In this document: positions 17,330 to 31,307 of the stretch, one piece after another
Layout of the letters: the number at the start of each line of letters is the position of its first letter
Numbering within the stretch: position 1 is the stretch's first letter
Notes under the pieces: model-generated
The model's input: the letters and a program-made list of their open reading frames with translations, nothing else
Databases searched by the model: none
What the model was told of the DNA's origin: nothing
Translations under genes and position numbers: made by a program
Assembly (NCBI GenBank): GCA_041674405.1
Contig: JBAYVT010000004.1
Location: 60,001 to 92,000 of the forward strand
Source of the DNA: Patescibacteria group bacterium
GTDB lineage: Bacteria > Patescibacteriota > UBA1384 > XYA2-FULL-43-10
Reading direction: 5' to 3'
Length of the DNA stretch: 32,000 nucleotides

Positions 17330-17345
17330 ATCCCCTCCGAATACA

Positions 17346-17996
17346 CTATTTGTTCAGCTCGTCTAGATATTTTGTAACATTTTCATTGGTCGGCTCGGCT
17401 AATCTTGCTTTTTGCCAGGATTCTTCTGCTTTCCCCCTGTAAAATTCTCTTGATTCACCCGATATCTCTGCGTCCTTCATCATATAATAATTTGCAAGCC
17501 CCAGATATATCCACGCATCAGCGTAATTTTCGTCCATTTCGGTTGCGGTGGTCGCAACGAGTATTGCCAGGTCGGGTCGGCCGTTTTCAATGTAGGCTTT
17601 AGCATCTTTTACAGCTTCCGATTCATTTTGCGGAACCTTGTTGGCTTCTGAGAGATCGTTCAGCGCATCTATGTCATTAATCTCTCTGAAAAATGGCTCT
17701 AGTTTTGTAATGTCCTTTTCGCTTTCCCTGGCTATAATTGTCCGTTCGTTAGCCTTGCTGCTACCTGCCAGGAACGCTGCTTTGCGGTATTCGACTAATG
17801 CAGATATAAATTTGCGATTTTTCAAAAAATCATCGCCCGAAGTTATATATTTATTTGTACCCGAAACTCTGGCGGGGCTTAAGGCGAAATACAAAATAAC
17901 AATCAGCAACAAGCCTATAACTGACCACAAAGCTGCTTTTTTCCATGATTTCTCCCCGAAATTATGCGGAGGTTTACGGGTGGCTACCTTTTTCAA
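17346..17996 (-). CDS. Membrane-anchored TPR-like repeat protein
   Basis: TTG start at 17996, 3 nt after the uppP stop. TM segment ALWSVIGLLLIVILYFAL. TPR-like helices (ALVEYRKAAFLAGS, AWIYLGLANYYMMKD). Confidence 0.7.
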   Translation of the reverse strand: MKKVATRKPPHNFGEKSWKKAALWSVIGLLLIVILYFALSPARVSGTNKYITSGDDFLKNRKFISALVEYRKAAFLAGSSKANERTIIARESEKDITKLEPFFREINDIDALNDLSEANKVPQNESEAVKDAKAYIENGRPDLAILVATTATEMDENYADAWIYLGLANYYMMKDAEISGESREFYRGKAEESWQKARLAEPTNENVTKYLDELNK

Positions 17997-17999
17997 GAA

Positions 18000-18821
18000 T
18001 TATCTCACAAAATAAACTATAACGACAACCAGCGCCACGATAACCCTATACCAAGTAAATATGGCGTAATTTCCCTTTTGCAAATATTGTAACAGATATT
18101 TTATTGCAATAAAACCAAATATTGCTGAAGTTAAAATTCCGACAAAAAATCCGGCATCCAACATCCCGGCATCAATGTGGCGAAATTTAAATAGCGAGGT
18201 TCCTAGCATGATTGGGGCGGCCAGAAGGAATGAAAATCTGGCGCTATCTGGCCTGGTCAAGCCTATTGCCCTTCCTGCGGCCATCGTTGATCCGGCTCGT
18301 GATACTCCGGGTACAATCGCCAACATTTGGGCCAAACCAACTAGTAATCCGAGCTTATAGTTTACAGCTTTTAGCTGATAGCTTCTTTTTGCATATCGAT
18401 CAATCATCCAAATAATAATACCAAAGACGGCTAGATTGATAGCAACAAGAAGCGGATTACGAAAAATCGTTTCGGCATTTTTTTCCAAAAGCACTCCGGC
18501 AATAGATCCCGGAATTGTGGCAACAATGATGATCCAAAGAAGATTCTTTGGATAGCTGCTAGCTGTTAGCTGTAAGCTGTCAGCTTTTTCCGACCCGCTC
18601 TTACTTGAGAATGCCGATCGGAAAATATTCACCCAGTCTTTCCAAAAAAAGGCGATGATAGCGAGGAGTGTGCCGAAATGCAGCGCGACGTCAAATGTTA
18701 ATCCGAAATCTTGCCAGTGAAAAAGCCATGGCGTAAGAACAAGGTGCGCGGACGAGGAAATCGGTAAAAACTCGGTGATTCCTTGAATAATTCCAAGGAT
18801 TGCAGGCTGAATTATGCTCAT
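18000..18821 (-). CDS. uppP: Undecaprenyl-diphosphatase (BacA/UppP)
   Basis: MSIIQPAILGIIQGITEFLPISSSAHL is the canonical UppP N-terminus; PGVSRAGSTMAAG is also present. Start moved to ATG 18821, which forms an ATGA overlap with the PAP2 stop. GGAGGA lies 6 nt upstream. Confidence 0.95.
   Translation of the reverse strand: MSIIQPAILGIIQGITEFLPISSSAHLVLTPWLFHWQDFGLTFDVALHFGTLLAIIAFFWKDWVNIFRSAFSSKSGSEKADSLQLTASSYPKNLLWIIIVATIPGSIAGVLLEKNAETIFRNPLLVAINLAVFGIIIWMIDRYAKRSYQLKAVNYKLGLLVGLAQMLAIVPGVSRAGSTMAAGRAIGLTRPDSARFSFLLAAPIMLGTSLFKFRHIDAGMLDAGFFVGILTSAIFGFIAIKYLLQYLQKGNYAIFTWYRVIVALVVVIVYFVR
18554..18588 (-). repeat. Five tandem 7-nt units AGCTGNN (+ strand) in frame inside uppP
   Basis: agctgct agctgtt agctgta agctgtc agctttt. 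Encodes ADSLQLTASSYP in a loop of UppP. Confidence 0.9.
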
Positions 18822-19384
18822 GAAACGTCCTCCAGTTTCCAATATTTTTGAGATTTATGCACAAAAAGAAATGAAAAAATGCCCGATGCTATTCCGAGAA
18901 GTGCTCCCCCTATAACATCGGAGGGATAATGTAGCCCTACGCCAATTCGGGAAATTGCAACCAAAATTGCAACGGCAAATAAAAATACTCCCAGTTTCTT
19001 GTGTCCATACAAAAATATTGCCGTTGCAATTGCAAAGGCAATATAGGTGTGAGAAGACGAAAAAGATGAGGTATGAATGCTAATATTTACATTTTCAGGG
19101 AAAACAAGCTCGGGATGAGAGATAAACGGACGGGGACGGCTCCAGAATATTGAAATAATAATGTCCGTAATCAAGGCCACCCCTGTTGCTAGAGCGGCGC
19201 CTATCAGAGCATTGATCCTTCTTTGCCAGATTAAATATATTGTTGAGAGGACCGAGATTATTACCCCGTAAGCAGCAAAAAAATAGAACAAAAGGCCAAG
19301 TGCGGGGTAGTTCAAATTTGCCCTATGGAAATAAAGGTATAACGTAAAATCGTAATGTCTGATTGCATCAAATAAATTCTGCAT
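18818..19384 (-). CDS. PAP2-family phosphatase (phosphatidic acid / undecaprenyl-PP phosphatase type)
   Basis: PAP2 motifs SFSSSHT and GLHYPSDVIGGALLG, with multiple TM segments. The track start is ATG 19393. The second ATG at 19384 lies exactly 7 nt downstream of an extended -10 and is preferred as a leaderless start. Confidence 0.85.
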   Translation of the reverse strand: MQNLFDAIRHYDFTLYLYFHRANLNYPALGLLFYFFAAYGVIISVLSTIYLIWQRRINALIGAALATGVALITDIIISIFWSRPRPFISHPELVFPENVNISIHTSSFSSSHTYIAFAIATAIFLYGHKKLGVFLFAVAILVAISRIGVGLHYPSDVIGGALLGIASGIFSFLFVHKSQKYWKLEDVS

Positions 19385-19391
19385 TAAATTC

Positions 19392-19402
19392 ATTCTAGCA
19401 CA
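19392..19402 (-). promoter_or_regulatory. Extended -10 promoter TGTGCTAGAAT driving PAP2/uppP and probably the downstream T4SS-like train
   Basis: Reverse complement of 19392-19402. The identical 11-mer occurs upstream of tsaD (24932-24942). There is a 7-nt gap to ATG 19384. Confidence 0.5.
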
Positions 19403-19404
19403 GA

Positions 19405-19413
19405 TGGTATAAT
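19405..19413 (+). promoter_or_regulatory. Extended -10 promoter TGGTATAAT for the xerC-like gene (leaderless)
   Basis: TGGTATAAT at 19405-19413, with a 7-nt gap to ATG 19421. It sits back to back with the minus-strand promoter, 2 nt away. Confidence 0.55.
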
Positions 19414-19420
19414 GGTGGCT

Positions 19421-20482
19421 ATGAAAGACCTTTTTAGGTTGAAGCGAGAATTTTTAGAATACTGCGAGATTGAAAAGGGCCAATCTCTTTTGACGATTGA
19501 AAATTATGACAGATACCTGTCTCGTTTTTTAACTTGGCTAAAAACCGAGAAAACTCAAAACTCAATCCGCCAACCGGCGGGCAAAAGCCAAAACAAAGGG
19601 AGTGCACTACAGACTACAGACTACAGACTACGGACTTCTGATATTGACCAGGAGATTATTCGCAAATATCGTCTATACATCAATCGTTTGCAGGGGGCGG
19701 ATGGCAGAGAACTTAAGGCAACGACACAGAATCACCATATTTTGGCCTTGAGGGCATTTTTGCGCTACCTTTCCTTTTCCGGTGAGAAGGTAATTTCGCC
19801 GGAAAAATTGACATTGGCCAAAACCGGAGATCGGGAAGTGAGTTTTCTGAACAAGGAGGAATATCTGCGCCTGCTTGATGCCCCGAATACCGCGAATTTG
19901 AATGGCCTACGTGATAAATCAATGCTTGAGCTTTTGTTTTCGACCGGTTTGCGCGTTTCTGAGCTTTGCGGCCTCAAGCTGGGGCAGATGAATTTTGACA
20001 AAGGAGAAATTGCTGTTCTGGGAAAAGGGAAAAAACTGAGAGTAGTATTCTTGTCAGATGTTACGCTCAAATATTTGGCCGACTATCTTGTAAACCGCAA
20101 AGTTTTGAAAATTATCGCTGACGACAGCTCAAGTCAATTGCAATATTTTATTTCAGAAACTTATAAAGATGATCCAGTTTTTCTTTCAAATCGCAAGAAT
20201 CCAATCAAACCCAGAGCAGTGGAGCGCCTGGTACAGAAATATGCCAAAGTTGCCGGAATTACTAAAACAGTCACGCCCCACACTCTTCGCCACACTTTCG
20301 CAACTGACTTGCTCGGTGCTGGTGCTGACATTCGTAGCGTTCAATCGCTTTTAGGGCATTCTAATATTTCCACGACTCAAGTCTATACTCACGTCACCGA
20401 CAAACACCTGAGGGAGATACACCAGAAATTCCACGATCGATCTCGTATAGAAGTAGATGAGGAACAAAAAAATTCGGGTTAA
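19421..20482 (+). CDS. xerC: Tyrosine recombinase, XerC/XerD-like
   Basis: C-terminal catalytic signature HTLRHTFATDLLGAGADIRSVQSLLGHSNISTTQVYTHV. The N-terminal SAM-like domain is interrupted by a ~30-aa low-complexity insertion. The track start at 19412 overlaps the -10 element, so ATG 19421 is preferred. Confidence 0.9.
   Translation: MKDLFRLKREFLEYCEIEKGQSLLTIENYDRYLSRFLTWLKTEKTQNSIRQPAGKSQNKGSALQTTDYRLRTSDIDQEIIRKYRLYINRLQGADGRELKATTQNHHILALRAFLRYLSFSGEKVISPEKLTLAKTGDREVSFLNKEEYLRLLDAPNTANLNGLRDKSMLELLFSTGLRVSELCGLKLGQMNFDKGEIAVLGKGKKLRVVFLSDVTLKYLADYLVNRKVLKIIADDSSSQLQYFISETYKDDPVFLSNRKNPIKPRAVERLVQKYAKVAGITKTVTPHTLRHTFATDLLGAGADIRSVQSLLGHSNISTTQVYTHVTDKHLREIHQKFHDRSRIEVDEEQKNSG
19550..19563 (+). 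repeat. Two tandem 7-nt units AAAACTC in frame inside xerC
   Basis: aaaactc aaaactc. Related AAAACTC/AAYCTCA words occur in tsaD (25175-25195) and valS (28191-28225). Confidence 0.8.
19606..19633 (+). repeat. Four tandem 7-nt units ACTACAG x3 + ACTACGG in frame inside xerC
   Basis: Indexed base by base. Encodes LQTTDYRLR. Confidence 0.95.
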
Positions 20483-20494
20483 ACCGAATTTTTT
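20467..20494. terminator. A/T-flanked hairpin (aaaaaaattcgg-gttaaa-ccgaatttttt) at the xerC stop; weak bidirectional terminator
   Basis: The stop TAA (20480-20482) sits in the loop. An A-run lies upstream and a T-run downstream. The stem has only 3 GC pairs. Confidence 0.45.
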
Positions 20495-20509
20495 AATATC
20501 CAATATTGA

Positions 20510-20680
20510 TTAATTGTTATCTGGTATATCATTCCACATATCGAATACTTCTACCTGGCAAATCGCCACCTCTTTGGGGCAGTTGGCGATTTCTGTTTTG
20601 ATCTGCTCGATACGATGAAAATTCGAATTCACAGGAATTTTTGTTTTTGTATCTTCAATTTTATTTACTTTGAGTTTCAT
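20510..20680 (-). CDS. Small hypothetical protein (56 aa), below the ORF-track cutoff
   Basis: ATG 20680 to TAA 20510, translating to MKLKVNKIEDTKTKIPVNSNFHRIEQIKTEIANCPKEVAICQVEVFDMWNDIPDNN. GAAGG lies 11 nt upstream. It is convergent with xerC onto the bidirectional hairpin. Confidence 0.35.
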   Translation of the reverse strand: MKLKVNKIEDTKTKIPVNSNFHRIEQIKTEIANCPKEVAICQVEVFDMWNDIPDNN

Positions 20681-20702
20681 TTTTGTTTTGCCTTCGGCAA
20701 TT

Positions 20703-20779
20703 ACTTATGAACATAAGAACTTATGAACGGAAGAACAATTTTATGTTTCGGTTCTTCAGTCCTTCGGTTCTTCAGTTTC
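20703..20779. repeat. Intergenic tandem repeats: 2 x 16 nt (acttatgaacRKaaga) and 2 x 16 nt (tcggttcttcagtYYY)
   Basis: 20703-20718/20719-20734 and 20748-20763/20764-20779. They contain GGAAGAAC and its complement GGTTCTTC, the same 8-mer word as the valS insertion at 28956-28987. Confidence 0.9.
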
Positions 20780-20799
20780 CGAAGGGATTAGATCATTAT

Positions 20800-20839
20800 A
20801 ACAAAAACGACACCCCGTGTCAACCAGTGACACGGGGTA
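20800..20839 (-). terminator. Intrinsic terminator of GC-island A gene
   Basis: Minus strand reads accccgtgtca-ctggt-tgacacggggtg followed by TCGTTTTTGTT. The stem is 11-12 bp and GC-rich, 56 nt after stop 20895. Confidence 0.7.
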
Positions 20840-20894
20840 CAGCTCTCGTCTATTCCGTTGTGGCCCAGTCTTGAGCTTGGCGGTTGGTTGGGGG

Positions 20895-21389
20895 TTATCC
20901 GGCACCCCCGTTCCAGTGTTTACCCAGCTCCGGAGGCTCCTCCGGCTGGATGTGCGGCTGTCCGGCGGGCGTCGGCGGATCAGCTCGTCTTGTTCGTTTG
21001 CGACAAGCAAGGACAACGATCGCCAGCCCAGCCAGAATAGCCAAGGTAACTCTGTAGTTCCCTGCCAGGCCCAGAGTGATCACCAGGGCCCCGATACACC
21101 ACAGCATTGCCTTAGCCGACATCTCCCTGCTCTGTTCCCTGCTATTGTCGATACCACGGCTACTGCCCATGGTCGCTCCTTTCCTCAATTTCGGAATTCG
21201 CTTCAGAAGTTGCGAGAGTGCCAGTGGCCAATTTGTCCGAAGGACAACAAATATGGCTGCTGCGCAGGCAAGGGCAAAAACGATCATTGCGAAGTAGGCA
21301 AGAATCCCGATCGAGTTGAGTGTCCCGATCGTGAATATTGCTGTGAACGTTCCGACAAGCAACCCACTCGACGATTTTTGTGGCAACAA
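20895..21389 (-). CDS. GC-rich small integral membrane protein (4 predicted TM), unknown function
   Basis: TTG 21389 lies 7 nt after AGGAGG. TM segments GLLVGTFTAIFTIGTL, IGILAYFAMIVFALACAAAIFVV, MLWCIGALVITLGLAG and TLAILAGLAIVVLA. It has its own terminator. The opposing 212-aa + ORF is Arg/Ser/Cys-rich junk. Confidence 0.7.
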   Translation of the reverse strand: MLPQKSSSGLLVGTFTAIFTIGTLNSIGILAYFAMIVFALACAAAIFVVLRTNWPLALSQLLKRIPKLRKGATMGSSRGIDNSREQSREMSAKAMLWCIGALVITLGLAGNYRVTLAILAGLAIVVLACRKRTRRADPPTPAGQPHIQPEEPPELGKHWNGGAG

Positions 21390-21478
21390 TTTCGACCTCC
21401 TGAGGGACGGGCTTGTTTGTTCGCAGAAACAAAAAACACAACGAGCAACAACTAGAAATCCAGGGTGTTACCGCTGTG

Positions 21479-22807
21479 TCACCTGTCTTCTCCAAACAAA
21501 CGGATAAGTTCCTCACGTACGACCTTGCGGTCGGAGTAGGGAACGAACTCATGTAAGCCGACTGCCATCACTTCTTCTGCTCCTTTTCCAGTAACGACAA
21601 CAACATCATTTTTTTTTGCTTCCTTTATCGCTTTGTGAATAGCTTGTTTTCGATCGAGGACTTTCCAATAATTTCGATTCAACCGCCACTGATGTTTCTT
21701 GCCGCCGCGGAAAATACCCTCTGAAACCTGCTCGATAATATCGGCAGGATTCTCGTCATACGGATCTTCGTCGGTAAAAATCACCAGATCAGCATAGTGT
21801 CCGGCAAGCGCGCCCATGATCGGGCGCTTAGTCTTGTCTCTATGGCCGGTGGCACCAAGCACGGCGATCAATCGCCCACCAGTTTTTTGTATGCTATCAG
21901 TCACTGTTTCATAAACATTTTTCAGGGAATCGGCGTTGTGGGCATAGTCCACGATTACGGTAAAGTCTTGTTTTTTACTTACTTTAATCGATTCCATTCT
22001 CCCGGTAACTCCGGACATATTCTCAAGTCCCATCCTAGTCTTTTCTGTATCGAGTCCCAAGGCAAGACCGACAGAAAATGCGGCTAAAGCATTTAGAACG
22101 TTAAAAATTCCTGGCATTTTCAAGTTGATTGTGGACTGGCCATTGTCGTATGCGGCAGTGAAAGTAACGCTCTCGGGAGAGGTCAATATTTTTCTTGCAA
22201 CCGCTCCGTGATCAACCTGCTTCTTAACTGAGTACAAAAATTTTTCGGAGGCTGGGAGAGAGTAGAATTTATTCCATTCTGCGTCATCACTATTGATAAT
22301 AAATTTTGCTTTTGGGTGATCGCGGAAAAGTTTAAGTTTGGCGTTCAGATAGTTCTCTTTGGTTTTGTGATACTCCATGTGCTCGTGCGAAAGGTTGGTG
22401 TAAACCAACACATCGAAATCGATTCCATAAATCCTGTTTTGGTCGATCGCTTGTGAAGTCACCTCTAAAATTGCATATTCACACTTATTGGCCACCGCTC
22501 TTTTCAAAAATCTTTGAATCACATCGGAGGGAGGAGTTGTTACCCATCGATCTTTGGTTTTGTGCGCGGTTATTTCGTCGTTTATTTTCGTATTGATGGT
22601 TGTTTCCATCGCGTTTTTGATGCCATTGGCATCGAGAACAGAAGCGATCATATTACAAACGGTGGTTTTCCCTTTGGTACCGGTAACGCCGATTACTTTG
22701 AGTTTTTTCGCCGGGTGGCCATATTTAAAACCGGCCCATGAAGCCTCAGCTCTGTGGAGCTTGTTTTTCGTTTTCTGCGATAAAATTTTAGATATTAGTC
22801 GTTTCAT
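21479..22807 (-). CDS. murE: MurE-like Mur ligase (UDP-MurNAc-L-Ala-D-Glu: diamino acid ligase), N-terminal domain truncated
   Basis: P-loop VIGVTGTKGKTT. NLSHEHMEYH, VIVDYAHNADSL and GATGHRDKTKRPIMG fit MurE. The mDAP-specifying DNPR position reads DEDPY (no Arg). Only ~40 aa precede the P-loop. Confidence 0.8.
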   Translation of the reverse strand: MKRLISKILSQKTKNKLHRAEASWAGFKYGHPAKKLKVIGVTGTKGKTTVCNMIASVLDANGIKNAMETTINTKINDEITAHKTKDRWVTTPPSDVIQRFLKRAVANKCEYAILEVTSQAIDQNRIYGIDFDVLVYTNLSHEHMEYHKTKENYLNAKLKLFRDHPKAKFIINSDDAEWNKFYSLPASEKFLYSVKKQVDHGAVARKILTSPESVTFTAAYDNGQSTINLKMPGIFNVLNALAAFSVGLALGLDTEKTRMGLENMSGVTGRMESIKVSKKQDFTVIVDYAHNADSLKNVYETVTDSIQKTGGRLIAVLGATGHRDKTKRPIMGALAGHYADLVIFTDEDPYDENPADIIEQVSEGIFRGGKKHQWRLNRNYWKVLDRKQAIHKAIKEAKKNDVVVVTGKGAEEVMAVGLHEFVPYSDRKVVREELIRLFGEDR

Positions 22808-22810
22808 ATT

Positions 22811-22882
22811 TTATTGCTAAATTGCTGTATTGCTAAATTGCTTACACAACAATTTGACAATTTAACCATTTAACAATTTATC
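22811..22882. repeat. Nine consecutive 8-nt units filling the murE/FemAB-gene spacer
   Basis: ttattgct aaattgct gtattgct aaattgct tacacaac aatttgac aatttaac catttaac aatttatc. The array overlaps the FemAB-gene stop (22878-22880). CAATTTAAC recurs in tsaD at 25691 and 25707. Confidence 0.95.
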
Positions 22883-23792
22883 TTCGGATTTTTTCCGCAA
22901 TTTTAAATAATTGGTATTCGAATGGTTTATAAACCTTGTCGTAACTGCCCATAATTTTAACTTCATCTCCACCGAACTGCTTTTTGAATCTGGTAACTCC
23001 TGCCCATAAGTGGCGCGGGTTGTCATCCGGCGCAATTCCGAAGAAGTCGTATATTTTGCAGCCGCGGCTTATGGCATTTTGAATCATTTCCCATTGTAAT
23101 TTGTATGGCGCCATTAGGTTCTTGAATTCGTCACTTGAGGCACCAAAAAGATAGATTGCTGAGCCCTGATAAATGCTGCAGATTGCCGCTGCTAAGACGA
23201 CTTCCTCACCTTCAATTTCGGCATAAGCTTCGAACAACTCACAATATCCCTTGGGTTCAAGAAAGTCAAGCAACTTCTGAAAATATTCCTCACCTCTAAA
23301 TGTAATTCCATGTCTCTTGCCTGTCTTCTCGTAGAGCTTGTAAAAATTACTGGCATCTCTTGTTTTTCTCACCAGAATATTATTTTTTTCGGCAACCTTG
23401 ATGTTATAGCGGCCTTTCTGTTTCATCTCACCAAGAAGGTCATCATTCGATTTGGAGAGGTCAAGAACTAGGGTGTGTTCCGGCTGCATCTCCTCGAAAG
23501 ATTTAATTAGTCCATAGTCTGTAGTCTGTAGTTCATAGTCTGTGGGGATATCGAATTCAATCCGGTAGAAAATTGCATTTTCCTCTTTTGCTATTTGAAA
23601 GGTTTGGTTCCAGTAGCTTTGGTTTTTGACATTTGAAATTTGATCTTGACTCGCCATCGGCGAGTATAACATCGACCTTCCCATTGGCAGGTCTTTTTTG
23701 AGCACCAAAATATCCTCGACGCGAAAGGATTTCGAATAGCCTGTAGCGAGTTTAAATTTCTCCCATTCGGGAGATTGAAATATAGAACTCAT
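22878..23792 (-). CDS. FemAB-family peptidoglycan interpeptide-bridge aminoacyltransferase
   Basis: N-terminus MSSIFQSPEWEKFKLATGY, and the overall FemX/FemAB-like pattern (YLFGASSDEFKNLMAPYKLQWEMI, GVTRFKKQFGG). Confidence 0.8.
   Translation of the reverse strand: MSSIFQSPEWEKFKLATGYSKSFRVEDILVLKKDLPMGRSMLYSPMASQDQISNVKNQSYWNQTFQIAKEENAIFYRIEFDIPTDYELQTTDYGLIKSFEEMQPEHTLVLDLSKSNDDLLGEMKQKGRYNIKVAEKNNILVRKTRDASNFYKLYEKTGKRHGITFRGEEYFQKLLDFLEPKGYCELFEAYAEIEGEEVVLAAAICSIYQGSAIYLFGASSDEFKNLMAPYKLQWEMIQNAISRGCKIYDFFGIAPDDNPRHLWAGVTRFKKQFGGDEVKIMGSYDKVYKPFEYQLFKIAEKIRR
23513..23547 (-). repeat. Five tandem 7-nt units (coding sense ACTATGA ACTACAG ACTACAG ACTATGG) in frame inside the FemAB-family gene
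   Basis: The + strand reads catagtc tgtagtc tgtagtt catagtc tgtgggg. Encodes YELQTTDYG. Confidence 0.95.
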
Positions 23793-23799
23793 TACCTAA

Positions 23800-23808
23800 A
23801 TATTATCA
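23800..23808 (-). promoter_or_regulatory. Extended -10 promoter TGATAATAT for the FemAB-family gene (leaderless)
   Basis: Reverse complement of 23800-23808, with a 7-nt gap (ttaggta) to ATG 23792. This is the same geometry as the xerC and PAP2 promoters. Confidence 0.5.
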
Positions 23809-23828
23809 CTCTTGCCTCTTGCTGCCAA

Positions 23829-23870
23829 TAAAAAAGAGGGCCTCCTGACCCGGTGGGACTGGGTCGGAGG
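23829..23870 (-). terminator. Intrinsic terminator at the left edge of GC-island B
   Basis: Minus strand reads cctccgaccc-agtcccacc-gggtcaggagg (one bulge) followed by CCCTCTTTTTTA. Confidence 0.65.
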
Positions 23871-23885
23871 CGGTGCGGGTTGCGG

Positions 23886-24110
23886 CTATCCTGAGAGAAT
23901 ATCGCATCCCCGGGGAGGCTCCTTGCGATGGCCATGGATTGCCTTCATTGCCGTCAGGCGGTAGCTCTGTCCATGTATCTTCGACATCGCTTCGTGGTGA
24001 CGGATGCGCCACATAACGCGCTCCGTCATACCTGGCTTGGGTAAATCGGAATGGGCTCCGACCACCAAACCAAGCGTACATCCCAATCTCTGATTTGCTG
24101 TCTTTATCAT
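23886..24110 (-). CDS. GC-rich small ORF (74 aa), reading frame uncertain
   Basis: ATG 24110 lies 8 nt after GGAGGAG, and stop 23886 lies 16 nt before the terminator stem. Hand-counted third-position G+C is 43/74. The competing 112-aa frame (23806-24144) runs through the terminator and has lower GC3 (about 42/88). The protein (MIKTANQRLGCTLGLVVGAHSD...) matches nothing I recognise. Confidence 0.3.
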   Translation of the reverse strand: MIKTANQRLGCTLGLVVGAHSDLPKPGMTERVMWRIRHHEAMSKIHGQSYRLTAMKAIHGHRKEPPRGCDILSG

Positions 24111-24195
24111 GTCCACCACTCCTCCAGAAGTTCTGTGATTCCAAGCTAGTGTAAAATTACTATAATGTCAAGCTCTGCATTAGATAATTTGGCAT

Positions 24196-24233
24196 ATAAA
24201 AAATTAAGCCCCCACCTAGCGTGTAGGTGGGGG
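24196..24233 (-). terminator. Intrinsic terminator inside GC-island B
   Basis: cccccacct-acacgct-aggtggggg (9-bp stem, 24209-24233) followed on the minus strand by CTTAATTTTTTATA. The stem overlaps the last codons and stop of the 62-aa ORF. Confidence 0.65.
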
Positions 24234-24404
24234 TGCGACTTGCGGGACCATCTCGATGCTGTTGCGCGGCACTTCGTGCCGTCTCAGTGTACCGCCATCG
24301 AGAGCGGCGCGGACGACAGCTTTGCCGCCTTTGTATTCGATGAGAGTACCACCAGTGTACTTGCCGTCTTTCTGCCTGATTCTCACGCGCGCGTTGATGG
24401 GCAT
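24216..24404 (-). CDS. GC-rich small protein (62 aa), possibly an SH3/KOW-like beta-barrel
   Basis: ATG 24404 is preceded by GAGGTGAAAGGC (the track start at 24413 is GTG). Sequence MPINARVRIRQKDGKYTGGTLIEYKGGKAVVRAALDGGTLRRHEV. It has its own terminator and an AT-rich upstream patch at 24430-24475. Confidence 0.5.
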   Translation of the reverse strand: MPINARVRIRQKDGKYTGGTLIEYKGGKAVVRAALDGGTLRRHEVPRNSIEMVPQVAPPPTR

Positions 24405-24496
24405 GCCTTTCACCTCGTGGCAGTATTTCAGTCCAACTCATTGTTAATATATCAAAAAAATATGCAGAGTAAACAGCAACACCGCAGGCGTGTTGC

Positions 24497-24868
24497 CTAC
24501 GGTGCGCGGTCGCTTCGAGGCGAAGTTGCCCAGTCTACACAGCCCAGGAGGCCTGCGTGGACGAGCGGGCGAATAGCCCCTGCCAACTTGGTCGTCGTCA
24601 TCGGGTCGCGTGGAATTCCATCCCAGGAAATGATGGTTCCGTTTCTGAAGTAGCGGGGCGTTTCCTTACCATCCCTGTTATAGGTGGTGACTTTGACGAT
24701 CCCGCATGGCTCCAGATTGTAACCGCCATTGCCTGTGATTCTGTCCACATCTGCCAACATGGTTGCGATTAGGCGTCGCTCTTTGGAAGACAGACAGCTC
24801 CTTCGCTTTAGCACCATGAGGTGCAAGGTGATAACCTCCTTCTTCGACAGAATTCCAATCCTCTGCAT
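24497..24868 (-). CDS. GC-rich hypothetical protein (123 aa)
   Basis: The ATG 24868 ORF spans the right part of island B. No recognised motifs and no clear SD. It is divergent from tsaD. Confidence 0.45.
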   Translation of the reverse strand: MQRIGILSKKEVITLHLMVLKRRSCLSSKERRLIATMLADVDRITGNGGYNLEPCGIVKVTTYNRDGKETPRYFRNGTIISWDGIPRDPMTTTKLAGAIRPLVHAGLLGCVDWATSPRSDRAP

Positions 24869-24931
24869 TATGGTTTTAGATAATTGATTGAGTCAACCCA
24901 ACAATTTTCCGAGTGGTAAAAAGTTTGGTTT

Positions 24932-24942
24932 TGTGCTAGAAT
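24932..24942 (+). promoter_or_regulatory. Extended -10 promoter TGTGCTAGAAT for tsaD
   Basis: Identical 11-mer to the PAP2 promoter. An 11-nt gap to ATG 24954 and no SD, implying a very short leader. Confidence 0.5.
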
Positions 24943-24953
24943 TTTTCAGTTAA

Positions 24954-26168
24954 ATGACAAAGAAAAACCTAAAAATTTTAGCAATCGAAACAAGCTGTGA
25001 TGAGACGGCTGCTGCTGTGATTTCTGAAAATCGAAATAAACCAGAAATACTATCGAACATTGTTTCTTCACAAATTGATCTTCATGCTAAGACCGGCGGA
25101 GTAGTGCCGGAAGTTGCATCGAGAGCGCATATGGAGGCGATATTGCCTGTCGTAAGTGAGGCGCTTGTACAGGCAAAACTCAAAAATCCAGAAAAACTAC
25201 GGACTACGGACTACAACCTACAAACTGGTCTGTCGGATATCACCCATATTGCCGTAACTGCTGGGCCAGGGCTGATCGGCTCACTCTTGGTTGGGTTCAA
25301 CACGGCAAAATCGCTGGCTTATTCGCTGGATTTGCCAATCATTCCAATCAATCATATAGAAGGACATGTGTACTCCGCATTCGCGGAGCAATTTCCAATT
25401 CCCAATTTCCAATTTCCAATTCTAGCATTGACTGTGTCTGGCGGCCATAGCTCGTTAACTTTGATGAAAGATCACGGAATCTATGAAAATTTGGGTCAGA
25501 CTTTAGATGATGCGGCGGGAGAAGCTTTCGACAAGGTTGCGAAACTTCTCGATCTTGGTTATCCAGGAGGACCGGTGGTTTCTAAACTCGCGGACGAGTT
25601 AAGAAACAAAGTCAAAAATCAAAGATCACCCGTCTCGGCCGAGGCACGATCCGAGGTCGGAAAGATCAAAAATAATAAAGAAAAAAATAGCAATTTAACA
25701 ATGAAACAATTTAACAACGAGATTGTATTTCCCCGTCCGATTCTGAATGACGGCACATTCAATTTCTCATTTTCCGGATTAAAAACCGCGGTTTTGACGG
25801 AGGTGGTCAAACTAAGGACTAAGGACTACGAACTACCGACTAGTGAAATCTGTGCGGCATTTGAAGATTCGCTTACCGATGTGCTTACGACAAAAACAAT
25901 GAGAGCGATTGATAAATTCAAACCAAAAGGTTTGATTCTTGCCGGAGGAGTAGCGGCCAACAGCTATCTGCAAGCCGAACTTCAACGGAAGGTTAATGAA
26001 TACAATCAGACTTTAAAGAAAAGAGATCAGATTAATTTTTATATGCCTCCGCGGGATATGACAGGTGACAATGCGGCGATGATCGGTCTTGCAGCTTACT
26101 ATCATATATCGAGGGGAGATGTAAAAGGGTGGGACGAGATCGAAGTCGATTCAAATTTTAAGCTCTAA
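24954..26168 (+). CDS. tsaD: tRNA N6-adenosine threonylcarbamoyltransferase TsaD, carrying four repeat-derived insertions
   Basis: ILAIETSCDETAAAV, TAGPGLIGSLLVG, HIEGH, VSGGHS, FSFSGLKTAV and GGVAAN are all canonical TsaD/Kae1 motifs. Confidence 0.95.
   Translation: MTKKNLKILAIETSCDETAAAVISENRNKPEILSNIVSSQIDLHAKTGGVVPEVASRAHMEAILPVVSEALVQAKLKNPEKLRTTDYNLQTGLSDITHIAVTAGPGLIGSLLVGFNTAKSLAYSLDLPIIPINHIEGHVYSAFAEQFPIPNFQFPILALTVSGGHSSLTLMKDHGIYENLGQTLDDAAGEAFDKVAKLLDLGYPGGPVVSKLADELRNKVKNQRSPVSAEARSEVGKIKNNKEKNSNLTMKQFNNEIVFPRPILNDGTFNFSFSGLKTAVLTEVVKLRTKDYELPTSEICAAFEDSLTDVLTTKTMRAIDKFKPKGLILAGGVAANSYLQAELQRKVNEYNQTLKKRDQINFYMPPRDMTGDNAAMIGLAAYYHISRGDVKGWDEIEVDSNFKL
25196..25228 (+). repeat. 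Tandem 7-nt units ACTACGG ACTACGG ACTACAA CCTACAA ACTGG in frame in tsaD
   Basis: Encodes KLRTTDYNLQTG. Preceded by aaaactcaaaaatccagaaaa. Confidence 0.95.
25389..25423 (+). repeat. Five tandem 7-nt units CAATTYC in frame in tsaD
   Basis: caatttc caattcc caatttc caatttc caattct. Encodes QFPIPNFQFPIL immediately before the VSGGHS motif. Confidence 0.95.
25691..25718 (+). repeat. Direct repeat CAATTTAACAA x2 (period 16) in frame in tsaD, within a ~38-aa insertion
   Basis: caatttaacaa tgaaa caatttaacaa. The surrounding insertion reads NKVKNQRSPVSAEARSEVGKIKNNKEKNSNLTMKQFNNE. Confidence 0.9.
25811..25845 (+). repeat. Five tandem 7-nt units ACTAAGG ACTAAGG ACTACGA ACTACCG ACTAGTG in frame in tsaD
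   Basis: Encodes KLRTKDYELPTSE. Confidence 0.95.
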
Positions 26169-26178
26169 AACGGCGAAC

Positions 26179-26202
26179 GCCACCCCGATGTTCTGGGGTG
26201 GC
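26179..26202. terminator. GC-rich hairpin gccacccc-gatgttct-ggggtggc between the convergent tsaD and island C genes
   Basis: 8-bp stem. The + strand is followed by GCGCTTTGTTCTT and the minus strand by GTTCGCCGTTTTA. Confidence 0.55.
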
Positions 26203-26229
26203 GCGCTTTGTTCTTGGTGGTGGCCGCTA

Positions 26230-26745
26230 CTAGGCGACCAACCGCAGGGTCGTGTCGAAGCCGGAAAGCCAGGTCGCGACCTGGTCGTAGGCCTCTCTGG
26301 CCCCGTTGTCGAAGTCCTCAGGCCGCAGGATCTGGTCGCTGGGGACCATTATCCGCGACTGCAGCTCCGCTTCCGGAACGCCGGTTGCCCGCTCTGTGGC
26401 CTCGAAGGGCGCTCCTGCTAGGAAGTCCTCGATGGTTAACGGGCCGCCGGAAGTGACATCCCCGAACTGCTTGGATGAGATGACCACATAGCCGCCAGTG
26501 GCGAGCGTGGCCATCATGTCGATGTGGGTCCGAGCAACGTTCCTCTCGGTGACGTAGTAGAGCTCGGCGACGCGGACGTCGCGGGCCATCACAAAGTTGG
26601 GAATGTTCCCCGGAACATGGCGCGGCGCCAGGCGGACCGGAGTGAACGGCGCGTCCTCAAGTGCCTTTGCGAGAAGGCGCCCATGGCCGGGGTTGCCGGC
26701 CACGATGAGCAATGTGGCTTGGTTTATCACAAGCATTACCTCCAT
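26230..26745 (-). CDS. GC-rich hypothetical protein with a degenerate P-loop-like N-terminus
   Basis: LLIVAGNPGHGRLLAKAL resembles GxPGSGKSTLAKAL of small P-loop kinases but lacks the Lys-Ser/Thr. GGAGG lies 8 nt before GTG 26730, suggesting the true start is there (MINQATLLIVAGNPGHG). Confidence 0.65.
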   Translation of the reverse strand: MEVMLVINQATLLIVAGNPGHGRLLAKALEDAPFTPVRLAPRHVPGNIPNFVMARDVRVAELYYVTERNVARTHIDMMATLATGGYVVISSKQFGDVTSGGPLTIEDFLAGAPFEATERATGVPEAELQSRIMVPSDQILRPEDFDNGAREAYDQVATWLSGFDTTLRLVA

Positions 26746-26771
26746 GGGTTTGTTCCGTCCTGCTCGAGCAT

Positions 26772-26800
26772 TTTATATCATAAAATAAACAAATTGTCAA
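26772..26800 (-). promoter_or_regulatory. Sigma70-type promoter for the island C gene: TTGACA, 17 nt, TATAAA
   Basis: -35 is the reverse complement of 26795-26800 and -10 the reverse complement of 26772-26777. It lies in AT-rich DNA just outside the GC-rich block. Confidence 0.55.
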
Positions 26801-26897
26801 TCGTAAATACGAATAATTGTTCATCTGGTGCGTTTTTATTGGATTCAGCCTCTTTTTGTGTTATTCTTAAGCACGAAACTGGTTAATTTCGGAAGTT

Positions 26898-29147
26898 ATG
26901 TCAAAAGAATTCGCCAAAACCTGGGACTCGAAGAAGTTTGAAGAGGATTTATACCAAAACTGGGAAAAATCCGGCTATTTCAAGCCTGAATTGAACATGC
27001 CCGAAAATCCAAAATATGATCGGGCGCTCGAAGGCAAACCATTCGTCATCCCAATTCCGCCGCCGAATGTCACCGGCAAGCTTCACATCGGCCATTCGTT
27101 ATTCATCACAATTCAGGATGTCATGATCCGCTTCCATCGCATGCTTGGCGAGCCCACGCTTTGGATCCCCGGCACCGATCACGCCGGTATCGCTACGCAG
27201 ACGGTCGTGGACAAAGCCTTACAAAAAAAGGGAATTAAGCGCCACGAAATTGGCCGTGAGAAATTTGTCGAAGAAGTTTGGAAGTGGAAAGAAGAATACG
27301 GCGGTATTATCACCTCACAACTCAAACGAATGGGTGCTTCCTGCGACTGGTCGCGCGAGCGTTTTACCCTCGACGAAGGTTTATCCAAAGCTGTGAAAGA
27401 GGCATTTGTCCACCTATACGAGAAGGGATTGATCTACCGCGGCGAATATATCGTCAATTGGTGCCCGAAATGCGGCACGGCGATCGCGGATGACGAGATG
27501 GAGCACGAAGAACAAACCGCAAAATTGTACTATTTCAAATACGACAAAAACTTTCCGATCACCATAGCAACTACCCGGCCAGAAACCAAACTTGGAGATA
27601 CGGCTGTGGCGGTCAATCCAACCGACAAGCGTTATGAGCAGTACATTGGCAAAGAATTCGATGTTGATATCGATGGCGTTAAGCGCAAGATCAAAATTGT
27701 TGCCGATCGCTCTATTGATATGAAATTCGGTACCGGCGCAGTCGGAATTACGCCTGCACACTCGGCTATCGACTGGAAAATCGGTGAAGTTAATGATCTT
27801 CCGATTGTCAAAGTCATCGACGAACGAGCAAAAATGACCGCCGAGGCCGGCAAATACGAGGGAATGAAGGTGCTCGAAGCCCGAGAAAAACTAGTTGAAT
27901 ATCTGAAAGGCGAAACACTCCTGGAAAAAGAGGAGCCGATCACAAATAATTTGAGCGTCTGCTACCGCTGCAACACGGCTATAGAGCCGATTCCGTCTCT
28001 ACAGTGGTTTGTGAGTATGCGCCCACTGGCAGAAAAAGCTAAAGCGGCCGTAACCTCCGGCGCTATCAAAATTATCCCGAAAAGATTTGAGAAGAATTAC
28101 AATCAGTGGATGGACAATATCCGCGACTGGTGCATCTCCCGCCAGCTTTGGTGGGGACACAGAATCCCGGTTTGGTATCGCAAACAGGAAAATCTCAAAC
28201 CTCAAACCTCAAATCTCAAACCCGAAGACATCTATGTCGGAAAAGAACCGCCAGCTGATATTGAGAGTTGGATTCAAGACGAAGATGTGCTCGATACCTG
28301 GTTTTCCTCGGCGCTTTGGCCGTTTTCTTCACTTGGTTGGCCAGAGAAAACCAAAGATCTGCAGTATTTCTATCCGGCAACCGTTCTCGAAACCGGATAT
28401 GACATTCTCTTTTTCTGGGTCGCCCGAATGGTAATGATGGGACTTGAGCTTACTGATTCGATTCCATTTGAGAATATTTACCTCCACGGCTTGGTTCGCG
28501 ATGAGAAAAATAGAAAGATGTCCAAGTCTCTCGGCAATGCGCTCGATCCGCTCGATATGATCGATAAATACGGCACAGATGCTGTCCGGATGGGTCTTGT
28601 GGTCGGCACTACCCCCGGGCTTGATATTCCTGTGGGTGAGCACAAGCTTAAGAATTATCGCAATTTCTCGAACAAAATCTGGAATGCCTCGCGCTTCGTT
28701 TCTCTTCGAGTTTCCGAAGGTGATCTGGCCTCGGGAGAAATTGGAGATGAGAAAATCGAGAACTTAAATATCGACCAATCAATTTTAACCGACGCCGACA
28801 AAAAAATTCTCGAAGCACACGAGGAAATCAAAAAGCGCGTGACAAAAGACCTCAAGGAGTTCAAATTCTCTGGCGCCGGCGAAGGGCTATATGAGTATTT
28901 CTGGCACAATTTCTGCGATATCTACATAGAAGCTGCTAAAGGGCAGCTCCAAACTGAAGAACCGAAGAACCGAAGAACCGAAGAACATTCAGAAAACACA
29001 AAAAAAATCCTGCTCAAAGTTCTGTCTGAATCTTTACAGATGCTGCATCCGTTCGTTCCTTATGTCACCGAAGCTGTCTGGCAGGAACTACGCGAAATTT
29101 ATCCAAAACTTTCCGAATCGATCATGATCTCCAAGTGGCCTATGTAA
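26898..29147 (+). CDS. valS: Valine--tRNA ligase (short form, no long C-terminal coiled coil), carrying two repeat-derived insertions
   Basis: PPPNVTGKLHIGHS (HIGH motif), TTRPETKLGDTAVAVNP and RKMSKSLGN (KMSKS motif). A possible extended -10, TGGTTAATT (26880-26888), lies 9 nt before the ATG. Confidence 0.95.
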   Translation: MSKEFAKTWDSKKFEEDLYQNWEKSGYFKPELNMPENPKYDRALEGKPFVIPIPPPNVTGKLHIGHSLFITIQDVMIRFHRMLGEPTLWIPGTDHAGIATQTVVDKALQKKGIKRHEIGREKFVEEVWKWKEEYGGIITSQLKRMGASCDWSRERFTLDEGLSKAVKEAFVHLYEKGLIYRGEYIVNWCPKCGTAIADDEMEHEEQTAKLYYFKYDKNFPITIATTRPETKLGDTAVAVNPTDKRYEQYIGKEFDVDIDGVKRKIKIVADRSIDMKFGTGAVGITPAHSAIDWKIGEVNDLPIVKVIDERAKMTAEAGKYEGMKVLEAREKLVEYLKGETLLEKEEPITNNLSVCYRCNTAIEPIPSLQWFVSMRPLAEKAKAAVTSGAIKIIPKRFEKNYNQWMDNIRDWCISRQLWWGHRIPVWYRKQENLKPQTSNLKPEDIYVGKEPPADIESWIQDEDVLDTWFSSALWPFSSLGWPEKTKDLQYFYPATVLETGYDILFFWVARMVMMGLELTDSIPFENIYLHGLVRDEKNRKMSKSLGNALDPLDMIDKYGTDAVRMGLVVGTTPGLDIPVGEHKLKNYRNFSNKIWNASRFVSLRVSEGDLASGEIGDEKIENLNIDQSILTDADKKILEAHEEIKKRVTKDLKEFKFSGAGEGLYEYFWHNFCDIYIEAAKGQLQTEEPKNRRTEEHSENTKKILLKVLSESLQMLHPFVPYVTEAVWQELREIYPKLSESIMISKWPM
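28191..28225 (+). repeat. Five tandem 7-nt units AAYCTCA in frame in valS
   Basis: aatctca aacctca aacctca aatctca aacccga. Encodes ENLKPQTSNLKPE. Confidence 0.95.
28956..28987 (+). repeat. Four tandem 8-nt units GAAGAACC in frame in valS
   Basis: gaagaacc x3 + gaagaaca. Encodes TEEPKNRRTEEH. The reverse complement ggttcttc occurs twice in the 20748-20779 spacer. Confidence 0.95.
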
Positions 29148-29188
29148 CATATGTTGCATTGACAAATTAATGTAACATATGTTACAAT
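29143..29188 (+). promoter_or_regulatory. Toxin-antitoxin promoter with two 16-bp palindromic operators
   Basis: TGTAACATATGTTGCA (29143-29158), TTGACA (29159-29164), TGTAACATATGTTACA (29171-29186) and -10 TACAAT (29183-29188). The spacer is 18 nt. ATG 29198 lies 9 nt after the -10. Confidence 0.6.
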
Positions 29189-29197
29189 AAAATCGAA

Positions 29198-29449
29198 ATG
29201 CAACACGATTATGTTTCGACAATTGAAGCGGCAAAAATCACAGGTTTGAACAGAACCCAGATTTTTCGCTTGATCAAGGTGGGCAAACTCCCAGCCGCTC
29301 GTATTGGGCGCAATTATATCATCAAAAAAGATGATCTCGGAATTTTGACTGCAGAAATTACGCCAAAAGAGAAGAAAAACATCGAACACTCGGTAGATAA
29401 GGTTTTTGAAGAGTATGGCGATGTGCTTAAAAAACTGGGGGAGGAATGA
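29198..29449 (+). CDS. Excisionase/MerR-type helix-turn-helix DNA-binding protein, putative antitoxin
   Basis: STIEAAKITGLNRTQIFRLIKVGKLPAARIGRNYIIKKDDL is a typical excisionase-family HTH. It forms an ATGA overlap with the downstream Doc gene. Confidence 0.8.
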   Translation: MQHDYVSTIEAAKITGLNRTQIFRLIKVGKLPAARIGRNYIIKKDDLGILTAEITPKEKKNIEHSVDKVFEEYGDVLKKLGEE

Positions 29450-29865: not shown

Positions 29866-29973
29866 AAATTTCAGTATGTGCAAAAAATGCACATATAGAT
29901 TAGTCAATTCTACAATGGATAATATCTTAGTTATTTCCATTTTGAAAAACACCTGAAATATCAAACGTAAAAC

Positions 29974-30158: not shown

Positions 30159-30214
30159 CGTACCTTGAAATCTTGTCTGTAATAAAATCAATCTGGAAAA
30201 GGAGATGGTAGAAG

Positions 30215-31237: not shown

Positions 31238-31256
31238 CGCAAGGTACGAACATCCA

Positions 31257-31282: not shown

Positions 31283-31307
31283 CAGCATTCATAAATTAAG
31301 GAGAAAA

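Follow-up and report, generated by a model that had tools for sequence, protein, structure and literature searches.

The stretch of DNA analysed here (the window) comprises 32,000 nucleotides (nt) of contig JBAYVT010000004.1 from a Patescibacteria group bacterium (assembly GCA_041674405.1, positions 60,001 to 92,000). Several of its genes, among them the essential valS, tsaD and uppP, contain short tandem arrays whose units measure 7 or 8 nt and which the ribosome reads in frame. Pfam matches were obtained for BacA/UppP, PAP2, Phage_integrase (XerC-like), Mur ligase, FemAB, TsaD and tRNA-synt_1 (ValS), in agreement with all host gene identities proposed in an earlier reading of the window, referred to below as the original prediction. 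Host open reading frames (ORFs) were all intact, with end-to-end matches, and the arrays were in frame, as is demanded of the Rickettsia palindromic elements (RPE) which that prediction had evoked. One array was found in uppP, one plus a short one in each of xerC and FemAB, four in tsaD together with degenerate units around a hairpin, and two in valS, the Mur ligase gene having none; four intergenic arrays occupied two spacers, and about 10 of the 14 arrays of the window were located within ORFs (Table 1). The periodicity of 7 or 8 exists in the DNA only, no short amino-acid repeat being present, and the view that these are DNA-level repeats read through by the ribosome was upheld.

Arrays were located with Tandem Repeats Finder (TRF) and with a separate match/mismatch period detector. 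Both recovered them everywhere they had been predicted, array 1 of tsaD being delimited as 25196-25214, and TRF found essentially nothing comparable elsewhere in the window. The detector reported arrays at periods 7, 8 and their doubles only. At a score of at least 10, seven period-7 and two period-8 arrays were counted, where 100 simulations with a second-order Markov model yielded an expectation of 0.02-0.06 for each period (about 0.06 for period 7); periods 4-6 and 9-11 gave none and period 12 gave two. The arrays are therefore more numerous than expected by chance.

Table 1. Arrays, hairpins and associated features of the window (positions counted from its first nucleotide; aa, amino acids; GC, guanine plus cytosine; UTR, untranslated region)
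Feature	Position	Strand	Sequence and remarks	Basis
uppP (BacA) array	18553-18585	-	AGCTGAC AGCTTAC AGCTAAC AGCTAGC AGCTA, 7 nt x 4.7; ADSLQLTASSY	TRF, Pfam
xerC short array	19550-19565	+	AAAACTC x 2.3; immediately 5' of GC-rich hairpin	TRF
Small GC-rich hairpin in xerC	19566-19582	+	TCCGCCAACCGGCGGG; in-frame IRQPAG, between A-rich heptamer units	-10.5 kcal/mol for 30-nt stretch
xerC array	19606-19636	+	ACTACAG x 4.4; LQTTDYRLRT	TRF
Conserved 56-aa ORF, no assigned function	20510-20680	-	3' of the 20703-20777 array hairpin	
Octamer array, 3' arm of 5'UTR hairpin	20703-20736	-	GTTCTTCC GTTCATAA GTTCTTAT GTTCATAA	TRF, RNA fold
Octamer array, 5' arm	20747-20777	-	ACTGAAGA ACCGAAGG ACTGAAGA ACCGAAAC; unit family as in valS array at 28952	
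Putative sigma-70-like promoter	20795-20823	-	TTGACA-17-TATAAT, 12/12, extended TG; just 5' of array hairpin	
Octamer array, FemAB-Mur spacer, 3' arm	22812-22842	-	AGCAATTT AGCAATAC AGCAATTT AGCAATA; stops 4 nt before Mur ATG	
Octamer array, FemAB-Mur spacer, 5' arm	22848-22880	-	AAATTGTT AAATGGTT AAATTGTC AAATTGTT; overlaps FemAB stop codon	
FemAB array	23515-23543	-	ACAGACT ATGAACT ACAGACT ACAGACT AT; TDYELQTTDY	TRF
FemAB short array	23625-23643	-	CAAATTTC AAATGTC AAA; empty site of the L012 FemAB 33-nt hairpin	
tsaD array 1	25196-25228	+	ACTACGG ACTACGG ACTACAA CCTACAA ACT; residues 81-92 (KLRTTDYNLQTG)	TRF
tsaD array 2	25389-25421	+	CAATTTC x 4.7; residues 146-156 QFPIPNFQFPI, invariant FP codons included	TRF
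tsaD degenerate A-rich units	25607-25628	+	CAAAGTC AAAAATC AAAGATC; left of hairpin element	TRF
33-nt GC-rich hairpin mini-element in tsaD	25628-25660	+	ACCCGTCTCGGCCGAGGCACGATCCGAGGTCGG; in-frame PVSAEARSEVG, at heptamer-unit boundary	hairpin fold
tsaD A-rich units	25661-25690	+	AAAGATC AAAAATA ATAAAGA AAAAAAT; right of hairpin	sequence
tsaD array 3	25691-25717	+	octamer CAATTTAA x 3.4; residues 246-255 SNLTMKQFNN, disordered loop	TRF
tsaD array 4	25810-25835	+	ACTAAGG ACTAAGG ACTACGA ACTA; residues 286-294 KLRTKDYEL	TRF
valS array A	28190-28222	+	AAATCTC AAACCTC AAACCTC AAATCTC AAACC; ENLKPQTSNLKP	TRF
valS array B	28952-28986	+	octamer AACTGAAG AACCGAAG x 4.4; QTEEPKNRRTE	TRF

Contig walking extended the sequence covered to 46 kb, and every array in it fell within a single block of about 10.5 kb, from 18.5 to 29 kb of the window. 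This clustering is real. As predicted, the cluster resembling a type IV secretion system (T4SS) was free of arrays; it encodes TrbL, a TraG/VirB4-like ATPase, PrgI, a TraC-like protein, peptidases and a 2429-aa protein whose gene, array-free as well, runs off the start of the window. Equally devoid of arrays were the 12 kb downstream, with acetyltransferase and sugar-nucleotide genes, and the 4.7 kb upstream. The array-free sequence comprised window positions 1-18500 and 29000-32000, L115 11786-21023 and L116. A replication origin at the array cluster was considered and rejected, DnaA boxes numbering 7 against 7.4 expected. Recent horizontal acquisition of the array-free flanks lost ground as an explanation, both the tetratricopeptide repeat/T4SS side and the sugar-gene side being syntenic in relatives.

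Array anatomy was established on 121 arrays from 16 array-rich loci, 85 genic and 36 intergenic. TRF returned 128 rows of period 7, 28 of period 8 and 24 of period 14, the latter mostly re-describing period-7 and period-8 arrays, and no more than 21 of any other period. On the sense strand, genic arrays contained 44% A, 21% C, 24.5% T and 10% G, with A exceeding T in 66 of 84. Neither 7 nor 8 shares a factor with 3, so that each unit is translated in all its phases, and selection has consequently left a clear mark in the stop-codon statistics. Arrays whose consensus unit is stop-free in all phases showed 89.9% matches, 13 genic arrays of at least three copies being 100% perfect, whereas those with a stop-containing consensus showed 79.1% matches and included no perfect array (p = 3e-6). 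In the uppP array (unit AGCTNAC), the variable fifth base is precisely the one by which in-frame TGA, TAA and TAG are avoided.

TsaD of the window is 100% identical to a protein encoded on a 158-kb contig of a Patescibacteria metagenome-assembled genome. A scan of genome contigs with TsaD retrieved no close genome, the best match being a Berkelbacteria metagenome-assembled genome (MAG) at 56%. A metagenome contig scan yielded, among the matches listed, mostly distant bacteria at 38-47% identity, which served only as background. Comparisons were made with five syntenic loci of relatives for which DNA was fetched (L010 to L014) and with other relatives and controls from Berkelbacteria (L001), Uhrbacteria (L003), Chloroflexota (L004) and Leptospira (L005). 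An excess of heptamer arrays was present in L001, L003 and L010 to L013, and absent from L014, which has a short-form TsaD, as well as from the Chloroflexota and Leptospira loci. Among the matches listed, period-7 arrays in 862 kb of mixed metagenome loci were concentrated in a few of these loci. The phenomenon is thus lineage-wide and extends far past the window.

Orthologous arrays were found at identical codons and with identical length in two to four genomes. L010, whose proteins are 71-80% identical to those of the window, carries arrays at matching codons in uppP, xerC, FemAB and all four tsaD sites. Its uppP orthologue has five units at identical codons of the codon alignment, and its xerC has CTACAGA x 3.6 at the codons of the window xerC array. 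In tsaD, the site of array 1 is occupied in L010 by AAAAGCT x 4.9, the family of array 2 recurs in L010, P0007, P0008 and L117, the site of array 3 holds AACAATCG or AACAATTT arrays in L010, L011 and L013, and array 4 is 91% identical to its L010 counterpart. The original prediction had reasoned that the same peptide segments in orthologues of unrelated lineages would speak against insertion. Part of this came true, since related lineages share the segments FPISNFQFP and KLRTxDYxLP. Hence the arrays are not recent insertions in the window genome but orthologous sequences of some age.

Although their positions are conserved, the units are renewed. Third codon positions between the compared genomes are 0.37-0.50 identical, that is, near saturation, and self-identity of the arrays at lag 7 is 0.56-0.92. 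At the FemAB site, the 30-nt array consists of three xxxGACT and one xxxAACT in the window, four xxxAGCT in L010, four xxxAACT in L011 and four xxxAGCT in L012, so that 15 of the 16 units display the state of their own genome at unit positions 4-5. This pattern is one of concerted evolution or array replacement with length unchanged. The period itself can differ: tsaD site 4 holds a 7-mer array in the window and L010 and an 8-mer array in L012 (AAGAACTG x 3.8), and valS site B holds an 8-mer array in the window versus two perfect 7-mer arrays in L012 (CAGTCAG x 4.4 and ACCGCCA x 4.3). In L012 ValS, an AAAGCTA array stands in place of the segment NMPENPKYDRALEG, which the window and L011 conserve.

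These data bear on the suggestion that the arrays are frozen. Over the short term this was borne out: three assemblies (ENA ERZ27247358, Logan SRR6484325 and Logan SRR22315508) matched the window at 100% identity over stretches of 17, 13 and 1.7 kb, all arrays lying in these stretches included. Between species it was not, as all units change in concert while length stays constant. Relics of ancient in-frame block insertions, with no continuing process, could account for the identical assemblies and for the orthologous positions in sister species. They are nevertheless very improbable, being contradicted already by the concerted changes across all units, and further by the 13 perfect genic arrays in relatives despite such low third-position identity, by arrays that add no length or replace native sequence, and by an array of L012 that is one unit out of frame.

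The latter was found in valS of L012 (7651-7681), which falls into two ORFs through a change of frame within an AAATCCG x 3.4 array orthologous to valS array A; one additional 7-nt unit, giving the usual 4.4 copies, brings the frame back. The split may correspond to a real frameshift, to assembly of a minor allele or to recoding. At the junction (CGAAAAAGC), a -1 ribosomal slip is possible. It had been predicted that gain or loss of a single unit would frameshift an essential gene; the L012 gene illustrates this. The three window assemblies are invariant. Unit lengths that are not multiples of three and a valS frameshifted at an array are what would be expected of contingency loci, in which changes in copy number switch genes on and off. 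Such phase variation is hardly credible here: the hosts are single-copy housekeeping genes (valS, tsaD, uppP) whose off state would be lethal, with no dispensable surface, virulence or restriction genes among them, the three assemblies showed no variation in copy number, copy numbers are low (4-5), and array length is conserved between species. Taken together, the concerted change, the replaced segments and the one-unit frameshift imply that the arrays are neither frozen nor simple insertions.

The position of the arrays in the protein was assessed for TsaD on an AlphaFold (AF2) model built from a 107-sequence alignment (mean predicted local distance difference test, pLDDT, 87). Arrays 1 to 3 and the hairpin element are located in surface loops or short helices with pLDDT 43-77: array 1 spans a loop together with short helices, at a pLDDT of about 77, and residues 240-253, in the region of array 3, have a pLDDT below 50. 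Across the 107 homologues, the loops bearing arrays 1 to 3 vary from 5 to 62 aa. The length of TsaD homologues in Patescibacteria varies between 348 and 546 aa; the additional residues are placed in the same few loops and resemble a three-phase reading of heptamers (KSQITNH, NPKSEIR, FPISNFQFP, KLEAESYKLKA). The predicted loop positions were thus mostly confirmed as surface or variable loops, with the exception of array 4, which is situated where a confidently modelled helix ends. The same array departs from the claim that each array adds residues: its segment measures 14 aa, the shortest in the family has 13, and no net length is gained. The term 'inserted' is too simple, considering that array 4 adds no length, that the L012 ValS array replaces a native segment, and that the native codons of the tsaD QFPI motif (CAATTTCCAATT) already amount to 1.7 copies of the array 2 unit, which array 2 prolongs.

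A second type of element was found nested among the heptamers. The 33-nt GC-rich hairpin of tsaD has another copy in FemAB of L012 (minus strand, about 3463-3495), identical at 28 of 33 nt, and both copies are placed exactly between heptamer units. The FemAB gene of the window represents the corresponding empty site, being exactly 33 nt (11 codons) shorter at 23625-23643; comparison of this empty site with the filled L012 FemAB revealed no target-site duplication. TsaD of P0009 lacks exactly the 11 aa of the window element, but as a second empty site P0009/L117 was not clean. Of the GC-rich hairpins, 15% were found at most 12 nt from an array, as compared with 4.3% of random intervals (3.5-fold). 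On sequence grounds, the 33-nt hairpin looks like a very small mobile element targeting the arrays. The converse proposal, in which the arrays would be accumulated target-site duplications of the hairpin, was rejected, the flanking AAAGATCA copies being 40 nt apart (hence frame-breaking) and the empty site indicating a plain 33-nt insertion. Other small palindromes read in frame were observed in relatives (xerC and tsaD of L010 and L013 and tsaD of L011). They encode IRQLAD, LTDRQAG and LPTGRQV, which are related to the IRQPAG of the window xerC hairpin and occur in L011 and L013, as well as peptides of the CHSEFISES...KQVQ(G/H)D and CHPRPDRGS...RLRGND types, and in many cases heptamer units surround them within one loop.

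RPE are palindromic mobile elements of 100-150 bp with a defined sequence that lie in frame in essential genes, at surface positions of the protein. The present arrays share with them the character of selfish repeats tolerated in frame at such positions, but the genic arrays are tandem, about 30 nt long and non-palindromic; the 33-nt hairpin is a closer analogue, 3-4 times smaller. A likeness by description also exists with the small dispersed repeats (SDR) of Nostoc, which Elhai and colleagues are said to have reported in 2008 as 21-27 nt hairpins in tandem heptamers, with mobility reportedly deduced from empty and filled sites. The element described here is likewise a hairpin of less than 35 nt with dispersed copies, embedded in heptamers and known from an empty and a filled site, although taxon and sequences are different and here both arrays and hairpin are in frame in housekeeping genes.

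Palindromy also concerns the intergenic arrays, and the statement that the architecture is tandem rather than palindromic was in this respect incomplete, given these inverted pairs and the RPE-like in-frame hairpins. In each spacer, the two arrays are inverse complements of one another and form a hairpin. The fold of 20690-20795 on the transcribed (minus) strand reached -30.7 kcal/mol (z -5.1), and that of 22800-22890 reached -20.5 kcal/mol, with z -3.4 on the minus and z -1.1 on the plus strand; this weaker folding of the plus strand points to G-U pairs. All five relatives have one long hairpin in the FemAB-Mur spacer, its arms being built of arrays in the array-rich L010, L012 and L013, whereas the hairpins of L011 and L014 are devoid of arrays. 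Inverted array pairs were also seen within a gene, in TsaD of L080. Positions matching that of the 56-aa ORF next to the first hairpin are occupied by ORFs of 52-56 aa in L010, L012 and L013.

It is conceivable that the arrays are selected cis-elements, serving as an mRNA or DNA platform for a cooperative or multimeric binder (cold-shock or S1-like, with a footprint of about 7 nt) or as a structure regulating translation. Their periodicity is kept despite near-saturated synonymous divergence, several of them exceed the conservation of the gene average, and their size is constant at about 30 nt. The intergenic arrays are placed downstream of a perfect promoter, in a 5'UTR, and right before the Mur start, they fold better on the transcribed strand, and the FemAB-Mur spacer is a long hairpin in five of five relatives. 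Such a role has been proposed for TAACTGA repeats, and CspB binds heptamer repeats (PMC4679880). We nonetheless consider this explanation rather unlikely. Neither the unit sequence nor even the period is conserved, and many unrelated units coexist in one genome; the genic positions are simply variable loops, and L014 and most bacteria are array-free at these sites. An Rfam scan of 18-30 kb gave no match below E 0.07, the spacers of the sister genomes reach only weak z-scores (-1.1 to -1.8) except in L011, whose spacer has no arrays, and the frameshifted valS of L012 resembles a cost rather than a function.

The explanation we favour, though at about even chances, is a microsatellite process that homogenises its own arrays and acts specifically on 7-8 nt units, similar to the short tandemly repeated repetitive (STRR) sequences of cyanobacteria and combined with strong selective filtering in genes. 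Out-of-register replication or repair would produce tracts of about 30 nt composed of 7- or 8-nt units and would then keep re-homogenising them; candidate processes are slippage, template switching and conversion, the last acting either from unit to unit or from array to array. In genes, as the statistics show, selection retains only versions that keep the frame, are stop-free in all three phases and encode hydrophilic peptides, in surface loops that tolerate them. Hydrophilic peptides in turn require an A-rich sense strand. The ribosome merely translates the result. Between genes, the identical process would yield inverted pairs and hence hairpins in the 5'UTR and the operon spacer. In favour of this process stand the restriction of the excess to periods 7 and 8, its distribution among lineages, the orthologous but renewed arrays, the perfect arrays as a mark of recent homogenisation, the selection filters, the one-unit frameshift of L012 valS, and the occurrence of arrays of an arbitrary unit in phage contigs, by which heptamer arrays are a general class, in agreement with the literature. 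The data show period specificity, lineage distribution, orthology, concerted change and the filters on stop codons and composition; slippage or conversion as the molecular mechanism is inferred, as is the reason for 7-8 nt units and for a length of about 30 nt.

A number of observations weigh against such a process. Length clusters around 30 nt in 7-mers and 8-mers, genic and intergenic alike (medians of 30 with an interquartile range of 26-33 for genic 7-mers, 27.5 for genic 8-mers, 29 for intergenic 7-mers and 30.5 for intergenic 8-mers), which simple slippage does not predict. Nor can single-unit slippage build arrays in essential genes without lethal frameshifts, so that growth would have to proceed by multiples of three units, or by conversion or replacement. 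The gap-length spectrum of TsaD pairs with at least 70% identity was without a distinct maximum at 7 or 8 codons, as a two-state model of +3 units would have it, and this comparison, a weak test, revealed no clean indel of 21 or 24 nt. No difference in array copy number was observed among the three assemblies, at the assembly level. The confinement of all arrays to one 10.5-kb block of the 46 kb is to be counted here as well. Within a genome, 4.2% of array pairs shared a unit family; the figure fell to 0.9% for pairs from different genomes, and random units gave 0.29%. Finally, four of five array pairs between the window and L010 were 0.76-0.91 identical, versus about 0.70 for the genes, which could mean functional constraint.

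The elevated sharing within genomes hints at copying between sites, and several of these points could be accommodated if dispersed modules of about 30 nt spread as blocks, by ectopic conversion or in a transposition-like manner, perhaps tied to the hairpins, and overwrote loop arrays. In its favour, the length of about 30 nt is uniform whatever the unit size, and units are shared more within than between genomes, far above random. Three sites of L023 are occupied by 30-nt arrays that are nearly identical down to one defective unit. Swaps of unit family or period without net length change at FemAB, tsaD site 4 and valS site B, replacement of conserved native codons in L012 ValS, the match between the valS octamer array and the intergenic hairpin arm at 20747-20777, and the demonstrable mobility of the 33-nt hairpin at unit boundaries are consistent with it. 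We regard it as possible but doubtful. The arrays have no conserved termini, target-site duplications or clean empty/filled pair, unit diversity is very large (the commonest family among 103 heptamer arrays occurring only five times), and no transposase-like gene besides the core xerC was seen in the loci. Part of the within-genome sharing stems from inverted hairpin partners. Moreover, phage contigs of IMG/VR, some at 56-68% GC, contain exact four-unit arrays not only of the window's units but also of the arbitrary control AGCATCG, and arrays formed by arbitrary heptamers point to a generic mutational process.

A bolder proposal, to which we attach a small probability, is that Patescibacteria possess an active, dedicated 'loop-writing' process, in which an enzyme or an ultra-small mobile system lays down or overwrites tracts of about 30 nt, be they 7- or 8-mers or 33-nt hairpins, at hotspots. 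If this were true, surface loops of essential proteins and hairpins of 5'UTRs and spacers would undergo constant remodelling. A length fixed at about 30 nt, the interchange of 7- and 8-mers at a single site and the sharing of units within genomes would then be signatures of machinery, not of generic slippage.

Returning to the self-homogenising process, its nearest known counterparts are heptameric simple sequence repeats (SSRs). An excess of heptanucleotide SSRs in prokaryotes has been described, with about 7 nt suggested as the stretch held by the polymerase (Mrazek 2007, as cited in PMC4692102 and PMC4679880). The SSRs and STRR sequences summarised in these citing papers (Mrazek et al. 2007; Mazel et al. 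1990) share with the present arrays the head-to-tail arrangement of 7-nt units, a lineage-specific excess of period 7 that does not extend to adjacent periods, and many dispersed low-copy arrays; slippage over the polymerase footprint has been proposed as their mechanism. As described there, they are mainly intergenic, depleted in coding regions and composed of one or a few fixed motifs, while about two thirds of the arrays reported here reside in ORFs, including essential genes and conserved loops, and in Patescibacteria the units are diverse, A-rich and G-poor and include octamers. The units of the window differ from cyanobacterial STRR sequences proper (CCCCAGT, TTGGTCA and CAACAGT in heterocystous cyanobacteria).

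The GGGAATC and GGGGAYT repeats of Xanthomonas and Nostoc (PMC4692102) show a comparable bias towards about four units, some inverted arrangements and a location near gene starts and ends. Their arrays are depleted in coding regions, however, and their four-unit bias is put down to formation of a G-quadruplex (PMC4692102). This explanation was rejected for the present arrays, which contain 10% G and cannot form such structures. TAACTGA repeats of Beggiatoaceae and cyanobacteria (PMC4679880) occur in 2-6 heptamer copies a few nt 5' of start codons, also inside operons, and their orientation in genes is limited by stop codons (PMC4679880). A similar proximity to starts was found for the array at the Mur start (22812-22842) and for the 5'UTR arrays at 20703-20777. 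The unit is nevertheless not TAACTGA, the intergenic units being ACCGAAGA, AGCAATTT and AAATTGTT; and whereas TAACTGA is one invariant unit that brings a stop into every frame and is barred from ORF interiors, many stop-free units are found here within ORFs. Borg repeats (PMC9879509) are likewise fast-evolving and often perfect tandem repeats at the nucleotide level that add low-complexity or disordered segments, but their genic units are multiples of three in many copies, instead of 7-8 nt read in three phases.

Literature searches returned nothing on heptamer repeats in Patescibacteria or the candidate phyla radiation (CPR). While the kind of repeat is already known, namely heptameric SSRs, arrays translated in frame within essential genes are apparently new for Patescibacteria, where they hold their positions, have their sequence renewed and are the target of a 33-nt in-frame hairpin. 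Repeats that are not multiples of three normally mark switchable genes, yet here they are translated in valS, tsaD and uppP across a bacterial lineage. A repeat process acting at the nucleotide level can persist in essential genes and shape low-complexity or disordered protein loops, and it may explain the variation in length of CPR housekeeping proteins such as TsaD. Orthologous arrays offer a natural test of microsatellite homogenisation under strict frame constraint. The link with the 33-nt hairpin parallels the association of heptamers and SDR in cyanobacteria and renders the preference of SSRs for 7 nt more tractable. On the practical side, arrays can lead the annotation of MAGs to call frameshifts or to divide genes, as for valS of L012.

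Some further observations were made on viral sequences and on the surroundings of the arrays. Many heptamer and octamer arrays were seen on IMG/VR contigs L095 to L114, often perfect, with 4.4 copies (31 nt) and in inverted pairs. The phage contig L100 encodes a portal protein and produced 13 period-7/8 TRF rows in 13 kb; the portal protein of a high-GC array-bearing phage contig had no INPHARED match. TTGGTCA, which is unit STRR2 of cyanobacteria, was seen only in L108, a viral contig of high GC and unrelated. Between the housekeeping genes of the window, small family-less ORFs at 20817-21455, 23806-24868 and 26230-26745 are array-free and richer in GC (0.49-0.53 vs about 0.43 around them), and unannotated ORFs of similar size occupy matching positions in L011 and L012. 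Directly 3' of valS, at 29099-29865, lies a pair of genes with HTH_17 and Fic domains, accompanied by an inverted repeat at 29150-29190 (ACATATGTTGCA...TGTAACATATGTTAC).

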